From a virus (Duplodnaviria; Heunggongvirae; Uroviricota; Caudoviricetes), in IMG/VR virus record IMGVR_UViG_2537562194_000022, positions 1-6,692 of that record: a DNA stretch of 6,692 nt, one strand, 5' to 3'. Shown here piece after piece: positions 1 to 6,692 of this stretch. A program made the translations under genes and the position numbers. How positions within the stretch are numbered: the first letter of the stretch is position 1; every line of letters begins with the position of its first letter. Under the pieces are notes generated by a model, which was given only the letters and a program-made list of their open reading frames with translations, made no database searches and was not told the DNA's origin.

Positions 1-189
1 TTTAAAACTGGTCGTCGTGCGGCGTTACGTGAGATCGAGGATGTGAAACACGATACGCGTGAAGCGGAAGATGTGCTGGATGTGGCGGTGGCCATTGCGG
101 AGGCAGACGGCGAAATTGAGCCGGAAGAGCGCAAGGTGCTGGAAGAGATTGCCGGTGTTCTGGGTCTTCGTCTGGAGAATCACCAGTGA
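1..189 (+). CDS. TerB-like domain protein, C-terminal fragment (5' end lies outside the window)
   Basis: Open frame from position 1 to TGA at 187-189, translating to FKTGRRAALREIEDVKHDTREAEDVLDVAVAIAEADGEIEPEERKVLEEIAGVLGLRLENHQ. The acidic AIAEADGEIEPEE...L segment resembles the TerB (tellurite-resistance-like) fold. Assignment is from motif memory only. Confidence 0.45.
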   Translation, partial: FKTGRRAALREIEDVKHDTREAEDVLDVAVAIAEADGEIEPEERKVLEEIAGVLGLRLENHQ

Positions 190-317
190 CGGTAAAACTG
201 CGCCTGGCTGTGGCTGCACTCCTGCTGTTTCTGGTGGTGATGGTGGATTTCACCAGCAGAATCATGTCGGTGCTGGCGGATGGGGTGCTGGTCTGCGGCA
301 TTGTGGTATTGCTGTAG
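186..317 (+). CDS. Small hydrophobic (probable membrane) peptide, 43 aa, possibly translationally coupled to the upstream gene
   Basis: GTG at 186-188 overlaps the upstream stop (caGTGAcg). Translation is MTVKLRLAVAALLLFLVVMVDFTSRIMSVLADGVLVCGIVVLL, ending at TAG 315-317, with two hydrophobic stretches. Below the length cut-off of the supplied ORF track. No homology evidence. Confidence 0.3.
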   Translation: MTVKLRLAVAALLLFLVVMVDFTSRIMSVLADGVLVCGIVVLL

Positions 318-349
318 CCGGTGATAAAAAGAAACAGCCTGCATAATGC

Positions 350-378
350 TTGATTTTTTTATTTGCTGTTTATTAAAA
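350..378 (+). promoter_or_regulatory. Putative sigma70-type promoter (TTGATT -35; AT-rich TATTAA/TTAAAA -10 region)
   Basis: TTGATT at 350-355 followed 15-17 bp later by tattaaaaat (371-380). The -10 is imperfect and lacks the conserved final T, so this is weak. Confidence 0.2.
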
Positions 379-520
379 ATACTACTGCATGGTGAATCCC
401 CCTGTGCGGAGGGGCAATCAGCAACCAGGTATATGTGATAATCGCGGATTCAGGTGCTGATACTGAATTCACCGGGAGGCACCCGGCACCATGCAAGAAA
501 AAGAATGTGCATGCAAACAT

Positions 521-544
521 GCCCCTCTCCGGAGGGGCTTTTTT
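521..544 (+). terminator. Rho-independent terminator
   Basis: 7-bp GC-rich stem gcccctc (521-527) / gaggggc (532-538), 4-nt loop tccg, followed directly by tttttt (539-544). Confidence 0.6.
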
Positions 545-636
545 ATGGGTAAAAAATGCCCGAATGGGTTCGGGCAATAGCATGAGATACTGATATTGTT
601 GTGTTGTTATCGTGTGGATTTTAACCAGGGTTTATC

Positions 637-663
637 AGGCTGCGCAACTGCGTGGCCTTTTTT
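637..663 (+). terminator. Second rho-independent terminator
   Basis: 9-bp stem aggctgcgc (637-645) / gcgtggcct (650-658) with two G-U wobbles, loop aact, then a T-run (658-663). Confidence 0.45.
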
Positions 664-670
664 CATTTCT

Positions 671-717
671 TGGGCTGTAGTCCCCGTGTGTCATTCAGGC
701 TTCCGGACTACAGCCCA
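671..717. promoter_or_regulatory. 13-bp perfect inverted repeat (operator-like or RNA stem-loop) about 45 bp upstream of the esterase start codon
   Basis: tgggctgtagtcc (671-683) is the exact reverse complement of ggactacagccca (705-717), separated by 21 nt. No T-run follows on either strand, so it is not a classical terminator. Confidence 0.4.
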
Positions 718-759
718 CTCCATATCTGATTTAATACACTATCCCGGCCGGGAGGAATA

Positions 760-2253
760 ATGACATTTAAACATTATGATGTTGTCAGGGCGGCGTCGCC
801 GTCAGACCTTGCGGAAAAGCTGACACACAAACTGAAAGAGGGCTGGCAGCCGTTTGGTAGTCCGGTGGCCATAACCCCGTACACACTGATGCAGGCGATG
901 ACAACAGAAGGAGAGCCACAGGTCAGCCCTGCAACTGAGCCGGATTGGTACTACGTCATCGTACTGGCCGGGCAGTCCAATGCCATGGCTTACGGTGAAG
1001 GGCTTCCGCTGCCGGATTCATACGATGCTCCGGATCCGCGCATTAAACAGCTGGCGCGCCGCAGTACAGTGACGCCGGGCGGGGCTGCCTGCAGATATAA
1101 CGATATTATTCCGGCCGACCACTGCCTGCATGATGTGCAGGATATGAGTACGCTGAATCATCCGAAGGCAGACCTGAGCAAAGGGCAGTACGGCTGTGTC
1201 GGCCAGGGCTTACATATTGCCAAAAAACTGCTTCCGTATATCCCGAATAACGCGGGGATCCTGCTGGTACCATGCTGTCGTGGTGGTTCGGCATTCACCC
1301 AGGGCGCGGAGGGGACATTCAGTGCGGACACGGGGGCCAGCCAGGATTCGGCGCGCTGGGGTGTGGGTAAACCGTTATATCAGGACCTGATTGCGCGCAC
1401 TAAAGCTGCATTACAGAAGAACCCGAAAAATGTGTTGCTGGCGGTGTGCTGGATGCAGGGAGAGTTTGACATGAGCGCCGCCACCCACGCACAGCAACCT
1501 GCGCTGTTTACAGCCATGCTGGCACAGTTTCGTGCTGACCTCTCCGTGTTTAACGCGCAGTGCCATGGTGGCAGTGCTGCAGATGTGCCGTGGATTTGTG
1601 GTGACACGACGTATTACTGGAAAAATACATACGCTACCCAGTACGACACCGTGTACGGCGGGTATAAAAACAGGGAGAGTGAGGGCGTTTATTTTGTGCC
1701 CTTCATGACAGACGGTAACGGCGTCAATACCGCCACTAACGCGCCGGCAGAAGATCCGGATATTCCGGCATCAGGATATTACGGTGCGGCATCGAGAACG
1801 AATGGAAACCAGGTATCATCAAACCGCCCGACACATTTCAGTTCATGGGCGCGCAGGAGCATTATTCCGGATCGTCTGGCAACCGCTATTCTGAACGCAG
1901 CCGGGCGCACCTCAGCCTTCATCAGTGGTAAGGCACCGGAAATCAAACCCTCGCCCGGCGGCAACACGCCATCGGGTCCGTCTGCAGATACGTCCGTTCG
2001 CACAATCTCCCTGCTGCCGGCAGCCGGAGAGGCTGCTGCGCAGGGCTGGAGCATTAAGGATGGCGGAATTCAGTTGTCAGATGGTGTATTTAAGATCACC
2101 AAGCAGAGCAATAAAACCTGGTCCCTGACGCATCCGGTGGATGACGCAATTACCCTGCTGACACAGGGCGGCAGACTGACCTGTGTCAGGCGCACTGACC
2201 AACAATCAGTTCGGGCTGGGGATTTATCTGTATACGGATGCTCCCGTTCCTGA
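760..2253 (+). CDS. nanS-p: Prophage sialate O-acetylesterase of the NanS-p type (DUF1737 N-terminal domain plus SGNH/SASA hydrolase domain); 3' end probably frame-shifted and truncated
   Basis: ATG at 760 preceded by gggagga RBS. The N-terminus MTFKHYDVVRAASPSDLAEKLTHKLKEGWQPFGSPVAI is DUF1737-like. VIVLAGQSNAMAYGEG carries the GQSN block of SGNH/sialate O-acetylesterase enzymes. 497-codon frame. Confidence 0.8.
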   Translation: MTFKHYDVVRAASPSDLAEKLTHKLKEGWQPFGSPVAITPYTLMQAMTTEGEPQVSPATEPDWYYVIVLAGQSNAMAYGEGLPLPDSYDAPDPRIKQLARRSTVTPGGAACRYNDIIPADHCLHDVQDMSTLNHPKADLSKGQYGCVGQGLHIAKKLLPYIPNNAGILLVPCCRGGSAFTQGAEGTFSADTGASQDSARWGVGKPLYQDLIARTKAALQKNPKNVLLAVCWMQGEFDMSAATHAQQPALFTAMLAQFRADLSVFNAQCHGGSAADVPWICGDTTYYWKNTYATQYDTVYGGYKNRESEGVYFVPFMTDGNGVNTATNAPAEDPDIPASGYYGAASRTNGNQVSSNRPTHFSSWARRSIIPDRLATAILNAAGRTSAFISGKAPEIKPSPGGNTPSGPSADTSVRTISLLPAAGEAAAQGWSIKDGGIQLSDGVFKITKQSNKTWSLTHPVDDAITLLTQGGRLTCVRRTDQQSVRAGDLSVYGCSRS

Positions 2254-2371
2254 TGGTGTGGCGATGACGGGTACCGGTAATCCGTTCCTGATGTCGTACT
2301 TCACTCAGACCACTGACGGCAGAGTGAATCTGATGCATCACAGGAAAGCCGGAAACACGAACTGGGGGTTC
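2183..2371 (+). pseudogene. Frame-shifted 3' continuation of the esterase gene, ending at the IS junction
   Basis: The +1 frame from about 2180 encodes protein-like sequence (ALTNNQFGLGIYLYTDAPVPDGVAMTGTGNPFLMSYFTQTTDGRVNLMHHRKAGNTNWGF), whereas the 760-frame ends in low-quality sequence (RLTCVRRTDQQSVRAGDLSVYGCSRS). The +1 frame runs into IS sequence at 2372. Confidence 0.4.
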
Positions 2372-2380
2372 ATCGATAGG
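2372..2380. repeat. IS91-like terminal repeat, ori-proximal end (downstream of tnpA)
   Basis: ATCGATAGG, preceded by GTTC at 2368-2371. Confidence 0.5.
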
Positions 2381-2558
2381 AATTTAAATCCCAAAAAGAT
2401 TAAAAAAACACCCAAAAACGGATGTTTATTCAACACTGCCTGCGTGCCATGAGTGCACCGCCGTCAATTAAATGGATCTTATCGATTGATACTGCATATC
2501 ACTGATGGTTTTTTACCCCATTCCCCTGAAAATGGACGCAACCTCTCCGATGCGGCTC

Positions 2559-3791
2559 TCAGCCGCACACCCGCTGTTGCGCCAGTGGCTCATGCATCAG
2601 GACCAGCTCTGTCAGACGGTAGCCCCGCTTCAGCCCCGTAAAACGCATCTGACCTCCGCACAGGATGCACTTCAGCGGGTCAACCTTCAGTAACCGCTGA
2701 TACATCCCTCTCCACCTGATTTGCATCGCCGTCTTTCTCACCGTCTCCGTTATGACGTACACAACATCTTCCAGTAACCGGCGCTTCACCGGACTCAGGA
2801 AACCGTAGTACCTCACCATACGGAACCCCTTATCCGCCACATGCCAGGAGAACCTTTCCATAAACTCATCACCACTCATCACCAGGTATTCTTCCCGTTT
2901 TGTCCGGTGACTGTTGTAACGCAGACCAATTTCATCCTGACCAGCATAGTGCTCCAGACGGCTCATCGGCACCGGCGGTTTTTTCAGGTAAGAGCCGAAG
3001 TACACCGCCACATGTGTGGCGTTATCCATCACCCGGGATACGTTGACATTCCAGCCCCGCCGGTAATGACTGTCCAGGAAGCGATTCCAGTCCCGTTTAC
3101 TGCTTCCTTCTGCTGCCAGCGCATCCGGTATCACCAGGTCCGGATATTTCCGTGACAGTAACCGCGTTATCCGGTAACGCCACATACTCATCACCTTACG
3201 GGCGTAAAAATGAAGGTTTTTCCAGGTGTGGTCTGATGTCACGCCGCCGGTCGTTGTCGACAGGTGAATGTGCGGATGCCACTGCTGGTCACGTCCCCAT
3301 GTGTGGATGACCGTGAATATCCCCGGCACCACATCTGCCTGGCGGCAGATTTCCTGTATCACATCCGCAGCAATGCGGCTCATCTCTGCCAGTAACCACC
3401 GGTTGTGGAACACCAGGGACCAGTACTGGCAGGGAAGTGTGAACACAATATGCTGCCACGGACAGTCGGGAACCAGACTCAGCAGATACTGTATCCACTG
3501 TGCGCCAGCCTTCACTCCGCAGTGCGGGCAGGAGCGACTTTTACACCGGAAGCAGATCTTTTTTATGTGGCTGCAGTCCGGAGATGAACAGCACCACTGT
3601 GTGTACCCCATCAGCGTGGTCCCGCAGGCCATGATTTTTGTCACAGACTCAATGACTACCGGACGCACTGAACCTTCCGGTTGTTTCTCCAGCCAGTTAA
3701 GCCAGCGGTTTCCCTGCTGAAAAATGTCGGCAAAACGGGGAAGCATCAGAAGGGCGGGGGGACTCCGTCCGGCCAGTGAACCGTGCCACAC
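2559..3791 (-). CDS. tnpA: IS91-family transposase TnpA (HUH Y2 rolling-circle transposase)
   Basis: 410-codon frame with a GTG start at 3791. N-terminal Cys-rich zinc-binding region (CCSSPDC...CFRCKSRSCPHC), HUH motif HPHIH, and a YxxxY pair (VYFGSY). The true start may differ. Confidence 0.9.
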   Translation of the reverse strand: MWHGSLAGRSPPALLMLPRFADIFQQGNRWLNWLEKQPEGSVRPVVIESVTKIMACGTTLMGYTQWCCSSPDCSHIKKICFRCKSRSCPHCGVKAGAQWIQYLLSLVPDCPWQHIVFTLPCQYWSLVFHNRWLLAEMSRIAADVIQEICRQADVVPGIFTVIHTWGRDQQWHPHIHLSTTTGGVTSDHTWKNLHFYARKVMSMWRYRITRLLSRKYPDLVIPDALAAEGSSKRDWNRFLDSHYRRGWNVNVSRVMDNATHVAVYFGSYLKKPPVPMSRLEHYAGQDEIGLRYNSHRTKREEYLVMSGDEFMERFSWHVADKGFRMVRYYGFLSPVKRRLLEDVVYVITETVRKTAMQIRWRGMYQRLLKVDPLKCILCGGQMRFTGLKRGYRLTELVLMHEPLAQQRVCG

Positions 3792-4111
3792 TCCGGGCAG
3801 TACATGCCGCCGGCGCTGATACCGGCAAGAATGGTCGCAAACTCCCGCTCCGTGCAGCGGGCTATTTCAGGATACCCTTCGTCATCAACACGTACAAACC
3901 AGAAGACCAGCTTTTTGTTTCCGGCATCCACAAAGAAGGGAATATTCAGGTCTGCGCAGCACTCAACGGCATCGTCAAAATTATCAAAGCGCAGAGCTTC
4001 TGCGTCTTCTTCGTCAAAGAAGTCATCGTCGTGAAGCTTCACGACATAGCGGGGAAGTTTGCTTCTTTGAGGGGCAGGTTTTCGTTTACGGGGTTTAGCT
4101 GAACGGGACAT
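3746..4111 (-). CDS. IS91 ORF121-like small protein (function unknown)
   Basis: 121-codon ORF with ATG at 4111, directly upstream of tnpA and overlapping its start by 46 bp. This length and position match the ORF121 of IS91. Confidence 0.75.
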   Translation of the reverse strand: MSRSAKPRKRKPAPQRSKLPRYVVKLHDDDFFDEEDAEALRFDNFDDAVECCADLNIPFFVDAGNKKLVFWFVRVDDEGYPEIARCTEREFATILAGISAGGMYCPECGTVHWPDGVPPPF

Positions 4112-4129
4112 ATAACTACCTGAAAGACA

Positions 4130-5572
4130 ATGATATTGTCTGTTTTTATAACGGTAATTTCAGGCCATGACAAGCCGCAGCCGCCAGGCTGCCTACTCGA
4201 TGATAAACAGCAGAGCGCCCTGACAAAAACAGAACGTGAGCTGGCCCTGTCCCGACTGAAGGGGGAGGAAAAAGAGCGTGTCCGGCTGGGGTATGCGGCG
4301 GATGACCTTGGTTTTGTGGGGGATTCGTATCAGGAGGCGAGACAGCGTTATATCAGTAATGCTCTGGAAGCCTGGCGTAATAACGAGGCGAACAAACCTA
4401 AATCCCGGGGTGGAAAATCAGAGACGGAAAAAGCGGAAGACAGTTTTTCCCGGCTACTGAAGCAGCAGAAAGAGCAACTGGCACTGGCCGGTCAGAACAC
4501 GGAGCTGGCGAAGCTGAAGTACCAGACAGCGCTGGGTGAACTGAAAACCCTGTCGGAGATACAGAAGCAGGAACTGCTGCGTAACGCGGCCCTGATTGAC
4601 CAGCAAAAAATCCGGGAACAGTTGCGATCCCGGGAAGAGACCCTGAAGAATGATAATGTGGCTGCGCGTGCATCAAATGAAGCCGAACTGCTGGGGTACG
4701 GGCAGGGAGAACGAGCCAGGGAACGCATGCGGGAGTTGCAGCAGATCCGCGACAGCTTCCGCCAGAAGGATGCGGACCTTCAGTCTCAGTATCAGACCGG
4801 GGATATCAGTGAGGATTTTTACAGACAGGCACGGGCACAGAACGCGCAGTATCTGAGCGAACGCCTTAAGGACCAGGCAGCCTTTTATGCCGAATCGGAT
4901 GCGCAGCGTGCGGACTGGCAGAAAGGCTTGCAGGAGGGGCTCAGTAACTGGGTGGACAATGCATCCGATTACGCTTCACAGGCAGCACAGCTTGCGACGG
5001 AGGGTATCTCAGGGATGGTGAATAACATCACGGAGATGCTGAACGGAAACAAAGTGGAATGGCGCAACTGGGCCTCATCCGTACTGCAGGAAATCTCAAA
5101 AGTTCTTATGAATGCCGCGATTGTCAACGGAATTAAGACGGCGGCAAACGGTATGTCCGGTGCGGGAGGATTTCTCGGCAGCATTGGTGACTGGCTGGGC
5201 GGGGCGGTGGCCAATGCAAAAGGCGGCGTGTATACCTCGGCAAACCTGAGTGCGTACAGCAACAGTATTGTGGATACGCCCACGTACTTTGCCTTTGCAA
5301 AAGGGGCGGGGCTGATGGGGGAGGCCGGACCTGAAGCCATTATGCCTCTGACGCGGGCGGCGGATGGCTCGCTGGGTGTGCGAGCGGTGGGCAGTATGAA
5401 CGGTAGTGCGGGTCTGGTGTATTCCCCGGTCTACCATATCGCCATTCAGAATGACGGGACTAATGGCCAGATAGGGCCGGAAGCTGCGGGCAGCCTTGTG
5501 CAGCTGATTGACCAGCGGGTGCAGGCGGTGATGCTGTCCATGCGACGTGACGGAGGAATGCTGAGTGGCTGA
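4130..5572 (+). CDS. H: Tail tape-measure protein (lambda gpH-like), C-terminal portion only; 5' end removed at the IS junction, first 24 codons are IS-derived
   Basis: Coiled-coil Q/E/R/K-rich middle, Gly-rich segment, and a C-terminus (VYHIAIQNDGTNGQIGPEAAGSLVQLIDQRVQAVMLSMRRDGGMLSG) that matches the lambda gpH C-terminus (NDGTNGQIGP...MRDGG). Phage-derived sequence begins at 4202, in frame. About 457 aa remain against about 850 for a full gpH. Confidence 0.85.
   Translation: MILSVFITVISGHDKPQPPGCLLDDKQQSALTKTERELALSRLKGEEKERVRLGYAADDLGFVGDSYQEARQRYISNALEAWRNNEANKPKSRGGKSETEKAEDSFSRLLKQQKEQLALAGQNTELAKLKYQTALGELKTLSEIQKQELLRNAALIDQQKIREQLRSREETLKNDNVAARASNEAELLGYGQGERARERMRELQQIRDSFRQKDADLQSQYQTGDISEDFYRQARAQNAQYLSERLKDQAAFYAESDAQRADWQKGLQEGLSNWVDNASDYASQAAQLATEGISGMVNNITEMLNGNKVEWRNWASSVLQEISKVLMNAAIVNGIKTAANGMSGAGGFLGSIGDWLGGAVANAKGGVYTSANLSAYSNSIVDTPTYFAFAKGAGLMGEAGPEAIMPLTRAADGSLGVRAVGSMNGSAGLVYSPVYHIAIQNDGTNGQIGPEAAGSLVQLIDQRVQAVMLSMRRDGGMLSG
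4192..4201. repeat. IS91-like terminal repeat, ter-proximal end (upstream of ORF121)
   Basis: cctactcgat; its reverse complement ATCGAGTAGG matches the left end with one indel. Confidence 0.5.
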
Positions 5573-5906
5573 GATAAAAACGCTGCATCTGGTCCCGCGT
5601 GAAGGGATGCAGGTGAGTGAGAAACCGTCGGTGGTGAGGGTTCGGTTTGGTGACGGTTATGAACAGCGCCGACCGACGGGACTTAATGCCAGACTGAAGA
5701 CGTTTCAGGCGGTGTTCCGGGTGACGGATGAACCAACCCGGCGCTGGCTGGATGAATTTTTATCCTGGCATGGTGGTTACCGTGCCTTTTTGTGGCGACC
5801 GCCGAAACATAACCGGACGGTGAGGGTGGTGTGCCGGGAGTGGAGCGTCACAGATAACGCCAGGTACAGTGATTTCAGTTGTACGATTGAGCAGGTGGTG
5901 AACTGA
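5565..5906 (+). CDS. M: Minor tail protein M (lambda gpM-like)
   Basis: GTG start overlapping the H stop (GTGGCTGA), with ggagga RBS 7 nt upstream. VRVRFGDGYEQRRPTGLNARLKTF...IEQVVN aligns with lambda gpM (VRKVRFGDGY...FEQVVN). Confidence 0.9.
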   Translation: MAEIKTLHLVPREGMQVSEKPSVVRVRFGDGYEQRRPTGLNARLKTFQAVFRVTDEPTRRWLDEFLSWHGGYRAFLWRPPKHNRTVRVVCREWSVTDNARYSDFSCTIEQVVN

Positions 5907-6604
5907 TGCAGGATATTCGCGAAGAAAGTCTGAACGAGTCGGTTAAGTCAGAGCAGTCACCGCGGGTGGTACTCTGGGAAATCGACCTGACGGTACAGGG
6001 TGGTGAGCGGTATTTTTTCTGTAATGAGCTGAATGAAAAAGGGGAGCCGGTCACCTGGCAGGGGCGTAAGTATGAGGCATACCCGATTGACGGCAGCGGC
6101 TTTGAGATGAACGGCCGGGGCAGCAGTGCCCGCCCGTCGCTGACGGTGTCCAATCTGTTTGGCCTTGTCACCGGGATGGCGGAGGACCTGCAGAGTCTGG
6201 TGGGGGCCACGGTGGTCCGCCGCCGGGTGTATGCCCGTTTTCTGGATGCGGTGAATTTCGTTGCGGGCAATCCGGAAGCGGACCCGGAGCAGGAGCTGAG
6301 CGACCGCTGGGTGGTGGAGCAGATGTCGCAGCTGACAGCCATGACGGCCTCGTTTGTGCTGGCTACACCGACCGAGACGGATGGGGCGCTGTTTCCCGGT
6401 CGCATCATGCTGGCGAACACCTGTATGTGGGATTACCGGGGAGATGAATGCGGGTATAACGGTCCTGCGGTGGCGGATGAGTTCGACAACCCCACCACGG
6501 ATATCCGGAAGGACAGATGCAGCAAGTGCATGCGCGGGTGTGAGATGCGCGGCATGGTGGCTAATTTTGGCGGTTTCCTTTCCATTAATAAACTTTCGCA
6601 GTAA
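5906..6604 (+). CDS. L: Minor tail protein L (lambda gpL-like)
   Basis: ATG overlaps the M stop (TGATG). 232 aa, as for lambda gpL. MQDIREESLNE...VVLWEIDLT...GGERYFFCNE...GEPVTWQGR...FGGFLSINKLSQ is collinear with lambda gpL along its length. Confidence 0.92.
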   Translation: MQDIREESLNESVKSEQSPRVVLWEIDLTVQGGERYFFCNELNEKGEPVTWQGRKYEAYPIDGSGFEMNGRGSSARPSLTVSNLFGLVTGMAEDLQSLVGATVVRRRVYARFLDAVNFVAGNPEADPEQELSDRWVVEQMSQLTAMTASFVLATPTETDGALFPGRIMLANTCMWDYRGDECGYNGPAVADEFDNPTTDIRKDRCSKCMRGCEMRGMVANFGGFLSINKLSQ

Positions 6605-6614
6605 ATCCTGTTTT

Positions 6615-6692
6615 ATGACACAGACTGAATCAGCGATTCTGGTGCATGCCCGGCGGTGTGCGCCTGCGGAGTCGTGCGGCTTCGTGATAGGC
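6615..6692 (+). CDS. K: Tail assembly protein K (lambda gpK-like), N-terminal 26 codons; continues beyond the window
   Basis: ATG at 6615, 10 bp after the L stop. MTQTESAILVHARRCAPAESCGFVIG matches the lambda gpK N-terminus. Confidence 0.85.
   Translation, partial: MTQTESAILVHARRCAPAESCGFVIG

Follow-up and report, generated by a model that had tools for sequence, protein, structure and literature searches.

An STnc100-family small RNA gene convergent with AgvB in the moron zone of a lambdoid prophage

Ahead of a truncated esterase gene in the 6,692-nt stretch of Caudoviricetes DNA analysed here (IMG/VR record IMGVR_UViG_2537562194_000022, positions 1 to 6,692; hereafter the window), a promoter-like sequence, a hairpin and a strong terminator follow one another between positions 350 and 545. 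What does this arrangement really encode? It could be the short terminated leader of a lambdoid late promoter, which an antiterminator extends into the late genes, or it could be an independent small RNA (sRNA), and the first-pass annotation had put forward both. The locus is a genuine but already known sRNA gene, a copy of the STnc100 family that pairs with AgvB, has its own promoter and terminator and lies where a lambdoid prophage carries its 'moron' genes, after the late promoter and ahead of the lysis genes. The spot had been chosen correctly and with care, but the element is known, the analogy with a late leader is wrong and the alternative offered beside it is right.

The identity of the element follows from the RF02076 (STnc100) model of Rfam, which matches positions 361-550 on the + strand with 148.1 bits (E 7e-34; gathering threshold 47) over its full length, positions 1-206 of 206, the secondary structure being kept with compensatory changes. 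Among Rfam matches reported at E up to 1, only STnc100, AgvB and AsxR fall in this region. Rfam and folding, together with a 5' end placed by promoter geometry, predict a transcript of about 159 nt at 387-545 (+), which would start at or next to G387. The window allele is the one called EcOnc06 in Escherichia coli O157 Sakai; the published EcOnc06 coordinates are offset between Sakai genome versions, and its position there is approximate. STnc100 is a curated sRNA family whose homologues are bound by Hfq, as CRAC in Sakai indicates, and have been seen on northern blots (PMC4104026, PMC5331693, PMC7873438), and the reading as an independent sRNA is borne out in this way. Two other classes were rejected. 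A tRNA or transfer-messenger RNA (tmRNA) origin finds no place in the window, where ARAGORN reports 0 genes of either kind and the Rfam tRNA and tmRNA models give no match at E up to 1. A riboswitch or attenuator does not fit either, as no aptamer family in Rfam matches the sRNA region and no conserved, mutually exclusive terminator and antiterminator pairings were found; linker and terminator sequences are freely swapped between variants, which have no conserved alternative pairing in common.

The conserved structure was defined with two sets of homologues. The first was obtained by scanning the 5' 14-mer of the element (389-402) against IMG/VR and comprises 68 distinct cores; the second was obtained by scanning the 3' 21-mer (470-490) against species-representative genomes, which leaves the 5' strand unconstrained, and comprises at least 120 loci in more than 25 genera of Enterobacterales. 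Folding of 385-548 gives -65.7 kcal/mol against -51.5 +/- 4.2 for shuffled sequences (z -3.39), and the fold contains a structured core at 387-494 (+) closed by helix P1 (387-394 with 487-494), in which 98% of the cells are paired among the 68 distinct homologues. The outer four pairs of P1 covary in the second set (GCAT/ATGC in 47 loci, GTGT/ACAC in 23, TTGT/ACAA in 7, TTGC/GCAA in 4 and CTGC/GCAG in 3). Hairpin P2 (398-415, +; 399-403 with 410-414), which is the hairpin marked at 399-414 in the first-pass annotation, has a CCCC/GGGG stem that is invariant in E. coli-type copies, keeps GCG in its loop and covaries across other genera of the second set (CCTTTC/GAAAGG, CCTACC/GGTAGG, CTCACC/GGTGGG, TCTCC/GGAGG). 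Hairpin P4 (446-470, +; 446-453 with 463-470) is 92% paired and shows changes on both sides at seven of its eight pairs in the first set, for example A-U in 30 and G-C in 29 sequences at one pair; G-U pairs are frequent in P4 (58 sequences), which assigns the structure to the + strand. Hairpin P5 (472-486, +; CCGGG AGGCA CCCGG, 472-476 with 482-486) is 99% paired and almost invariant, lies within the exact 21-mer of the second set and is joined to the 3' strand of P1 without a linker. For the structure as a whole, covariation in the first set reaches 0.196, compared with 0.125 in shuffles, none of 500 of which reach the observed value, and with at most 0.057 when the partners are slid.

Beyond these helices, the segment 417-423 (+) is complementary to 455-461 in the 9-nt loop of P4. 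In an alignment-free test this complementarity amounts to 6-10 bp in nearly all variants, with 23 distinct 5' strands (among them ATCAGCA/TGCTGAT, CTGGTG/CACCGG, AATGACTG/TGGTCATT, ACTGGATA/TATCCAGT and GTTCCAGCAG/TTGCTGGAGT); its median is 7 bp against 4.0 for shuffled loops, and in a MAFFT alignment double changes are seen at five of the seven pairs. The covariation supports a pseudoknot, or an alternative helix, between 417-423 and 455-461. The Rfam match shows none in its consensus-structure line, and the word 'pseudoknot' is absent from the 2026 preprint on STnc100 and PasD. Classical H-type geometry looks sterically impossible with linkers of 0-1 nt; a kissing loop may be the better comparison, or the helices may alternate. 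The junction sequences GGUGAAU and UCACCGGGAGGCACCCGGCACC are near-invariant. In addition, the GC dinucleotides in the loops of P2 (406-407) and P5 (479-480) are almost invariant and mutually complementary, which suggests a possible tertiary contact between the two loops. Conservation of structure across related prophages, which had been set as the test of the original proposal, is clear for P1, P2, P4, P5 and the pseudoknot. The exception is the long-range pairing of 391-397 with 467-473 that had been proposed from the window alone: the two segments are complementary here, but they show no covariation, the pair 396-468 is mismatched in 33 of the 68 homologues, and the change at 468 is compensated inside P4, so that this pairing is not the conserved structure.

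Downstream of the core, a terminator scan confirms the intrinsic terminator that had been seen at 521-544 (+), with seven pairs, six of them G-C (521-527 with 532-538), the loop UCCG and six U residues at 539-544. By simple criteria, 56 of 64 E. coli/Salmonella-type contexts have a + strand terminator no more than 140 nt from P1. Between the core and the terminator, four A-R-N repeats (AAG AAA AAG AAU, AAGAAAAAGAAU) at 495-506 (+) form a candidate site for the distal face of Hfq; Tree et al. report such repeats as the motif to which Hfq binds (PMC4104026). Together, the U-tailed Rho-independent terminator and the A-R-N tract resemble the build of Hfq-dependent class II sRNAs. The P2 hairpin (398-415) and the terminator hairpin (521-538) are near-identical, and strands could in principle be swapped between them. 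A riboswitch-like switch between P2 (CCCCCUGUGCGGAGGGGC) and the terminator hairpin (GCCCCUCUCCGGAGGGGC) was considered on these grounds and dropped, because only the E. coli/Salmonella group keeps this likeness.

The promoter is the part of the original proposal that stands with some reservation. The -35-like hexamer TTGATT (350-355, +) is present 18 nt upstream of TAAAAA, and the AT-rich -10-like element (374-380, +; TAAAAA at 374-379 or AAAAAT at 375-380) lies 6-7 nt ahead of the first base of P1; the main E. coli variants have TTGTCT or TTGCCT spaced alike from TAAAAG. A generic sigma-70 scan calls no promoter at 350-380. Of 133 non-redundant upstream regions from homologues, however, 29 carry a TAnnnT hexamer that stops exactly 6 nt short of the base with which pairing in P1 begins, compared with about three at each of the other offsets, and hexamers with at least four of six matches and A at position 2 are found at the 6-nt offset in 39, against a background of about 3-9 per offset. 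The arrangement TTGACx-17-TAnnnT is present at the P1-proximal site in many lineages. The promoter of the window, weak when taken alone, gains support from this family-wide -10 peak at a fixed offset.

Taken as a whole, these characteristics are best explained by an autonomous, Hfq-binding, trans-acting sRNA of the STnc100 family, which has a structured 5' core and whose terminator forms part of a transcriptional barrier; we give this explanation a probability of roughly 0.72. The weak sigma-70 promoter (TTGATT at 350-355 and the -10-like element at 374-380) would start the RNA at or next to G387, and the RNA would fold at once into the compact core 387-494, consisting of P1, P2, P4, P5 and the pseudoknot between 417-423 and the P4 loop. 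The A-R-N tract (495-506) and the U-tailed terminator (521-544) would then serve as two standard Hfq-binding modules. In a lysogen, the RNA would be made without the antiterminator Q, bound and stabilised by Hfq, and would act in trans on host or prophage RNAs; judging from the literature on homologues and from the pattern of variation, these are probably recognised by segments that vary between lineages, the arm 424-445 and the linker 495-520. The terminators of the sRNA and of AgvB and a further hairpin at 637-658 may together form a barrier to transcription from moron and tRNA promoters that has not been antiterminated, shielding the esterase and lysis genes, and on induction the Q-modified polymerase coming from the late promoter PR' would pass this barrier, as established lambdoid biology would lead one to expect.

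Several observations weigh against this explanation. The literature gives no target for this allele and no established function for any STnc100 member. It is unusual for a simple base-pairing sRNA to have its 5' end locked in a helix and junctions that stay near-invariant over many genera. The window promoter is weak, as the generic scan indicates, and the reported RNAs are longer than predicted: in Table S2 of PMC4104026, EcOnc06 has a northern size of about 177 nt and EcOnc27 of 235 and 247 nt, the 247-nt form being destabilised without hfq, while the distance from core to terminator is 159 nt here and 172 nt in the copy of prophage Sp5, which corresponds to EcOnc27. Since 177 nt exceeds the predicted 159 nt, transcription may begin further upstream, near 353-370 (with CATAAT at 342-347, for instance, as the promoter element), or the RNA may be processed from a longer one, and the EcOnc27 sizes imply that this variant starts 55-65 nt ahead of P1. 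Outside Escherichia and Salmonella, a simple terminator was detected in only 46 of 118 contexts. Finally, one Citrobacter braakii locus (L197; 4060-4260 and 4610-4824) holds two cores that have no terminator of their own. A tRNA-Met gene follows the end of one core after 6 nt, and a tRNA-like sequence follows that of the other after about 7 nt; both cores look like parts of a tRNA array.

With respect to transcript length, most E. coli variants (for example L125, 2880-2951) have a conserved leader of about 55-80 nt, with TTAAAT or TGTAAT, TCACAATTCAG, a hairpin and TTTGTTAAAAG. In the main E. coli variants the spacing is TTAAAT-N3-TCACAATTCAG, followed by the hairpin, whose stem covaries (CAGAC/GTCTG, CAGGCA/TGCCTG). 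The window allele is without this upstream leader of about 55 nt. The leader may mark a second, distal promoter, which may explain the 235- and 247-nt species of EcOnc27.

If the pseudoknotted core were itself the active part, as a protein-binding, decoy or tRNA-like RNA or as a cis-acting sensor of the terminator, Hfq and the terminator would be accessory. The near-invariant junctions (GGUGAAU and UCACCGGGAGGCACCCGGCACC) beside covarying helices and a pseudoknot are what such a reading would have in its favour, together with the spread of the exact 21-mer over at least 120 loci, the paucity of simple terminators outside the E. coli-type contexts, and the linker-free stack of P5 on P1, which recalls that of T arm and acceptor stem in tRNA; the two Citrobacter copies, 5-7 nt upstream of tRNA or tRNA-like genes, fit it as well. 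However, beyond the absence of any tRNA or tmRNA call by ARAGORN, the core has no CCA-like end, and no Rfam family but STnc100 matches it. A conserved antiterminator pairing that a sensor of the terminator could use was not found among the variants, the twinning of P2 and terminator being confined to the E. coli/Salmonella group; Hfq binding and pairing with many RNAs are on record for homologues; and direct adjacency to tRNA genes is rare. We regard this reading as unlikely. A somewhat broader form of it, in which a core of about 110-140 nt is the functional unit with a conserved host or phage partner and the Hfq tail is a lineage-specific addition, fares slightly better but is still improbable; the core would then be a candidate protein decoy, a substrate of RNase P or of other processing, or a tRNA mimic.

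About as doubtful as an active core with accessory Hfq is the possibility that the RNA has no promoter of its own and is cut from the messenger of the TerB/DUF3927 genes (or of stx), with core and terminator protecting the fragment in the manner of sRNAs derived from 3' untranslated regions. The weak match of the window promoter and the excess of the reported RNAs over the core-to-terminator span (177 against 159 nt; 235 and 247 against 172 nt in Sp5) are in keeping with processing, and StxS, the leader RNA of PR' in Shiga toxin (Stx) phages, is itself matured by RNase E (PMC7547250). A processed fragment would leave unexplained, on the other hand, the sharp family-wide -10 peak 6 nt from P1 and the near-consensus -35 and -10 pairs of many genera, as well as the retention of the upstream promoter signal behind unrelated genes.

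The autonomous sRNA must also be distinguished from the equivalent of a late-promoter leader, in which the promoter at 350 would be the Q-dependent PR' and the RNA a short constitutive transcript that ends at the terminator tR' and is extended by Q into the esterase and lysis genes. The layout is indeed alike: a promoter is followed by about 160 nt of structured RNA, and late-region genes come after a strong terminator. The search for an antiterminator gene upstream, which the first-pass annotation had recommended, also has a positive outcome: Q lies upstream in relatives, and in the O111 chromosome 95NR1 it ends only about 600 nt upstream. The sRNA is nevertheless not the leader of the Q-adjacent promoter. 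In prophage Sp10 of Sakai the order is Q (ECs_1958), tRNA-Ile, tRNA-Arg, a TerB/TciA-like gene, the sRNA, AgvB1 on the - strand and the esterase-like ECs_1961; Q ends about 1.1 kb upstream of the element, and a strong terminator after the tRNAs (L124, 471-490), 740 nt ahead of the sRNA, intervenes, so that the element is not the first terminated unit after Q. Q and the element are 3.3 kb and six open reading frames (ORFs) apart in the phage record LC567835 (PPyecE_EH1910), which is 99.1% identical, and in the window itself TerB-like and DUF3927 ORFs, rather than the end of Q, lie directly upstream.

Where late promoters have been mapped, or can be recognised by likeness to lambda, they adjoin Q and are upstream of and separate from the element. 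Experimental mapping in Stx phages placed the PR' start and tR', and with them the 258-nt StxS leader, beside Q and upstream of stx (PMC7547250). When an offset of about 137 nt between Sakai versions, seen at AgvB1, is allowed for, the mapped PR' start in Sp5 falls 17 nt after the Q stop and the mapped tR' falls at a clear terminator in the Sakai record, both upstream of the tRNAs and stx2; the Sp5 copy of STnc100 (EcOnc27) starts 104 nt past the stx2B stop. Six loci of other genera with a lambda-like Q (L134, L170, L186, L199, L217 and L229) have a separate PR' with the AACGATGGG pause motif and a terminator, within at most about 130 nt of the Q stop, and the STnc100 core follows 70-350 nt further on. 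The element is preceded by unrelated genes (stx1B, stx2B, a methylase, a TerB-like and an AraC-like ORF, classed by eye), and tandem STnc100 copies each have their own upstream region. No TAnnnT hexamer was found by direct reading in 387-412; Q-binding elements vary by Q type and are not recognisable from the sequence alone. The lambda PR' leader is not known to resemble the element. The equivalence with a PR'-tR' leader is unsupported and can be considered very improbable.

The autonomous sRNA is best viewed within its convergent locus. The window is 99.0% identical over 114-6692 to the chromosomes of the O111 Shiga toxin-producing E. coli 95NR1 and 95JB1. Of the Sakai prophages, Sp10 is 98.0% identical to positions 1-800 and Sp17 96.9% to 220-800. 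Upstream moron genes at 1-317 (+) comprise a TerB/TciA-like gene, of which the window holds the 3' end up to 189, and a small DUF3927 membrane ORF (186-317), as annotated in homologous regions. Between these ORFs and the DUF1737 esterase ORF, STnc100 (361-550, +) converges with AgvB (612-551, -), an anti-sRNA and sponge of the sRNA GcvB (function from PMC4104026); this dyad partner matches Rfam RF02702 with 96.5 bits and is identical to the consensus over 551-612 (-). The AgvB copy is perfect, and its terminator (576-557, -, by terminator scan) stands back to back with that of the sRNA, about 6 nt apart.

Between the dyad and the esterase gene, the terminator scan finds a second + strand terminator-like hairpin (637-665; nine pairs, six of them G-C, and a T-rich tail), which is kept in Sp10, Sp5 and 95NR1. 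A 12-bp inverted repeat (672-683 and 705-716), directly 5' of the esterase start codon at 760, is likewise kept in these three. Hairpin (637-665) and repeat (672-716) could be an extra barrier or a structure in the 5' untranslated region of the esterase messenger. The truncated esterase gene (DUF1737/9-O-acetyl-sialate esterase, NanS-p-like; 760-2253, +) is assigned from the ORF list and from the annotation of LC567835 and 95NR1; the 95NR1 gene is a frameshifted, incomplete pseudogene beside an IS91-family transposase, the element having cut it, and is joined to genes of the tail. In the window, an IS91-family transposase ORF (2559-3791, -) and a small ORF link the truncated esterase to a tape-measure fragment (ORF 4130-5572). 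Because the esterase is joined to the tail tape-measure fragment, the lysis and head genes are deleted in this prophage.

The family as a whole is very common. Of 5,426 complete E. coli genomes, 2,831 have a match to window positions 345-548, and in 808 the coverage is 80% or more. A genome may have as many as 11 such places, and the 12 records listed annotate no RNA there. The prophages Qin and DLP12 of K-12 contain neither the core motif nor an Rfam STnc100 match. The hosts of the 21-mer include Salmonella, Enterobacter, Klebsiella, Citrobacter, Kosakonia, Pantoea, Erwinia, Rahnella, Buttiauxella and others, and the Rfam STnc100 model scores the copies of other genera at 48-90 bits. In these genera, as judged by eye, Q-type antiterminators or repressor-like ORFs lie upstream and holins or a beta-barrel moron downstream. 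At 16 non-Escherichia loci (for example L240) a 249-amino-acid outer-membrane beta-barrel protein, KdgM/NanC-like by eye, replaces the sialate esterase, its gene being located 58-225 nt (median 218) downstream of the core 21-mer; both proteins would relate to the use of sialic acid or oligosaccharides. The convergent dyad is mostly an E. coli-type arrangement (29 of 64 contexts, against 4 of 118 others).

Tandem STnc100 pairs with differing variable arms occur about 467 nt apart at seven loci (L009, L020, L021, L029, L043, L078 and L089) and also at L006 and L072, each copy having its own conserved upstream region and terminator. At L099 a tRNA-like 3' half lies downstream of the core. The exact 21-mer is present as well in contigs labelled Prolixibacteraceae, Streptomyces, Mucilaginibacter and Vagococcus (L138, L168, L175 and L194), which are most likely contaminated or mis-binned enterobacterial DNA.

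The call itself is ordinary, as the RNA is in Rfam and the O157 copies were published in 2014 as Hfq-binding sRNAs. What seems less appreciated is the pseudoknotted core with its near-invariant junctions, spread across Enterobacterales. The interest of the family lies in the lack of any function in the literature, in its variants that are linked to haemolytic uraemic syndrome and in its great abundance, with no RNA annotated in the 12 records listed. The pseudoknot, the fixed geometry between promoter and helix and the spread through Enterobacterales are handles for mutagenesis and for the correction of genome annotation.

How does the window RNA compare with the systems already described? In eight Sakai prophages, Tree et al. 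(2014, PMC4104026) described 'convergent sRNAs' that lie 3' of PR', with a moron coding sequence on one side and a conserved downstream ORF on the other. These are dyads of Hfq-binding sRNAs (EcOnc06/AgvB and EcOnc27/AsxR) between the late promoter and the lysis genes, to which no function was assigned, and a 2021 review (Sy and Tree, PMC7873438) calls the reason for the dyads 'unclear'. In Table S2 of PMC4104026, EcOnc06 belongs to Sp17, with a homologue '5' ECs1961', and EcOnc27 to Sp5; the northern probe of EcOnc27 corresponds, as reverse complement, to linker and terminator of the STnc100 copy in Sp5. RNA-seq of EDL933 shows transcripts of 11 STnc100 copies, with little ribosome coverage, and a northern blot confirmed one of them (PMC5331693). 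Overexpression of sRNA103, which is EcOnc27, reportedly led to higher fimZ and espA transcript levels, and presence in vesicles is also in the literature. Few genomic features predicted haemolytic uraemic syndrome as strongly as variants of the STnc100 copy downstream of stx2 did in a recent study (PMC12711010). Two candidates were rejected: IpeX of K-12 DLP12 as a characterised homologue, since nmpC lies on the opposite strand there and DLP12 and Qin are without the core, and HnrS, a 66-nt multicopy prophage sRNA, as a processed product, since HnrS corresponds to EcOnc10-12, at other coordinates.

The closest relatives are those of the same family. RF02076 STnc100, gammaproteobacterial and first listed among the Hfq-associated RNAs of Salmonella, is a multicopy prophage RNA that has P1, P2, P4 and P5 in common with the window RNA; the window allele differs in being without the leader of about 55 nt of the main E. 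coli variants, and the pseudoknot goes beyond the Rfam structure line. EcOnc06, EcOnc27 (sRNA103) and EcOnc42 have the same order as the window, with a moron coding sequence, the sRNA, a convergent anti-sRNA and an esterase-like ORF. EcOnc06 is the window element with the same partner, AgvB, at 97-98% identity to Sp17 and Sp10, whereas EcOnc27 has another variable arm, linker and terminator and makes longer RNAs. PasD1 and PasD2 of enteropathogenic E. coli are prophage sRNAs upstream of a sialate esterase, Hfq-dependent, with many partners in RIL-seq (Pearl Mizrahi 2021), and reported to be structurally homologous to STnc100. A common ancestor of PasD and STnc100 has been proposed, PasD lying directly upstream of the sialate esterase, and their seed regions differ (Zhu, Shabalina and Storz, 2026 preprint); the comparison of PasD with the window allele is by description only.

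The remaining systems resemble the element in position more than in build. AgvB and AsxR come from the same locus, bind Hfq and are modular, with a conserved scaffold and a variable segment, but they lie on the opposite strand, measure 51-62 nt, have no structured core and form a separate family. Lambda 6S and StxS are, like the window RNA, short terminated RNAs of the late region through which a Q-modified polymerase must read. StxS, moreover, binds Hfq (PMC7547250). These two start at a Q-adjacent PR' with a promoter-proximal pause element, whereas the window element is separate, lies further downstream and carries a promoter signal of its own.

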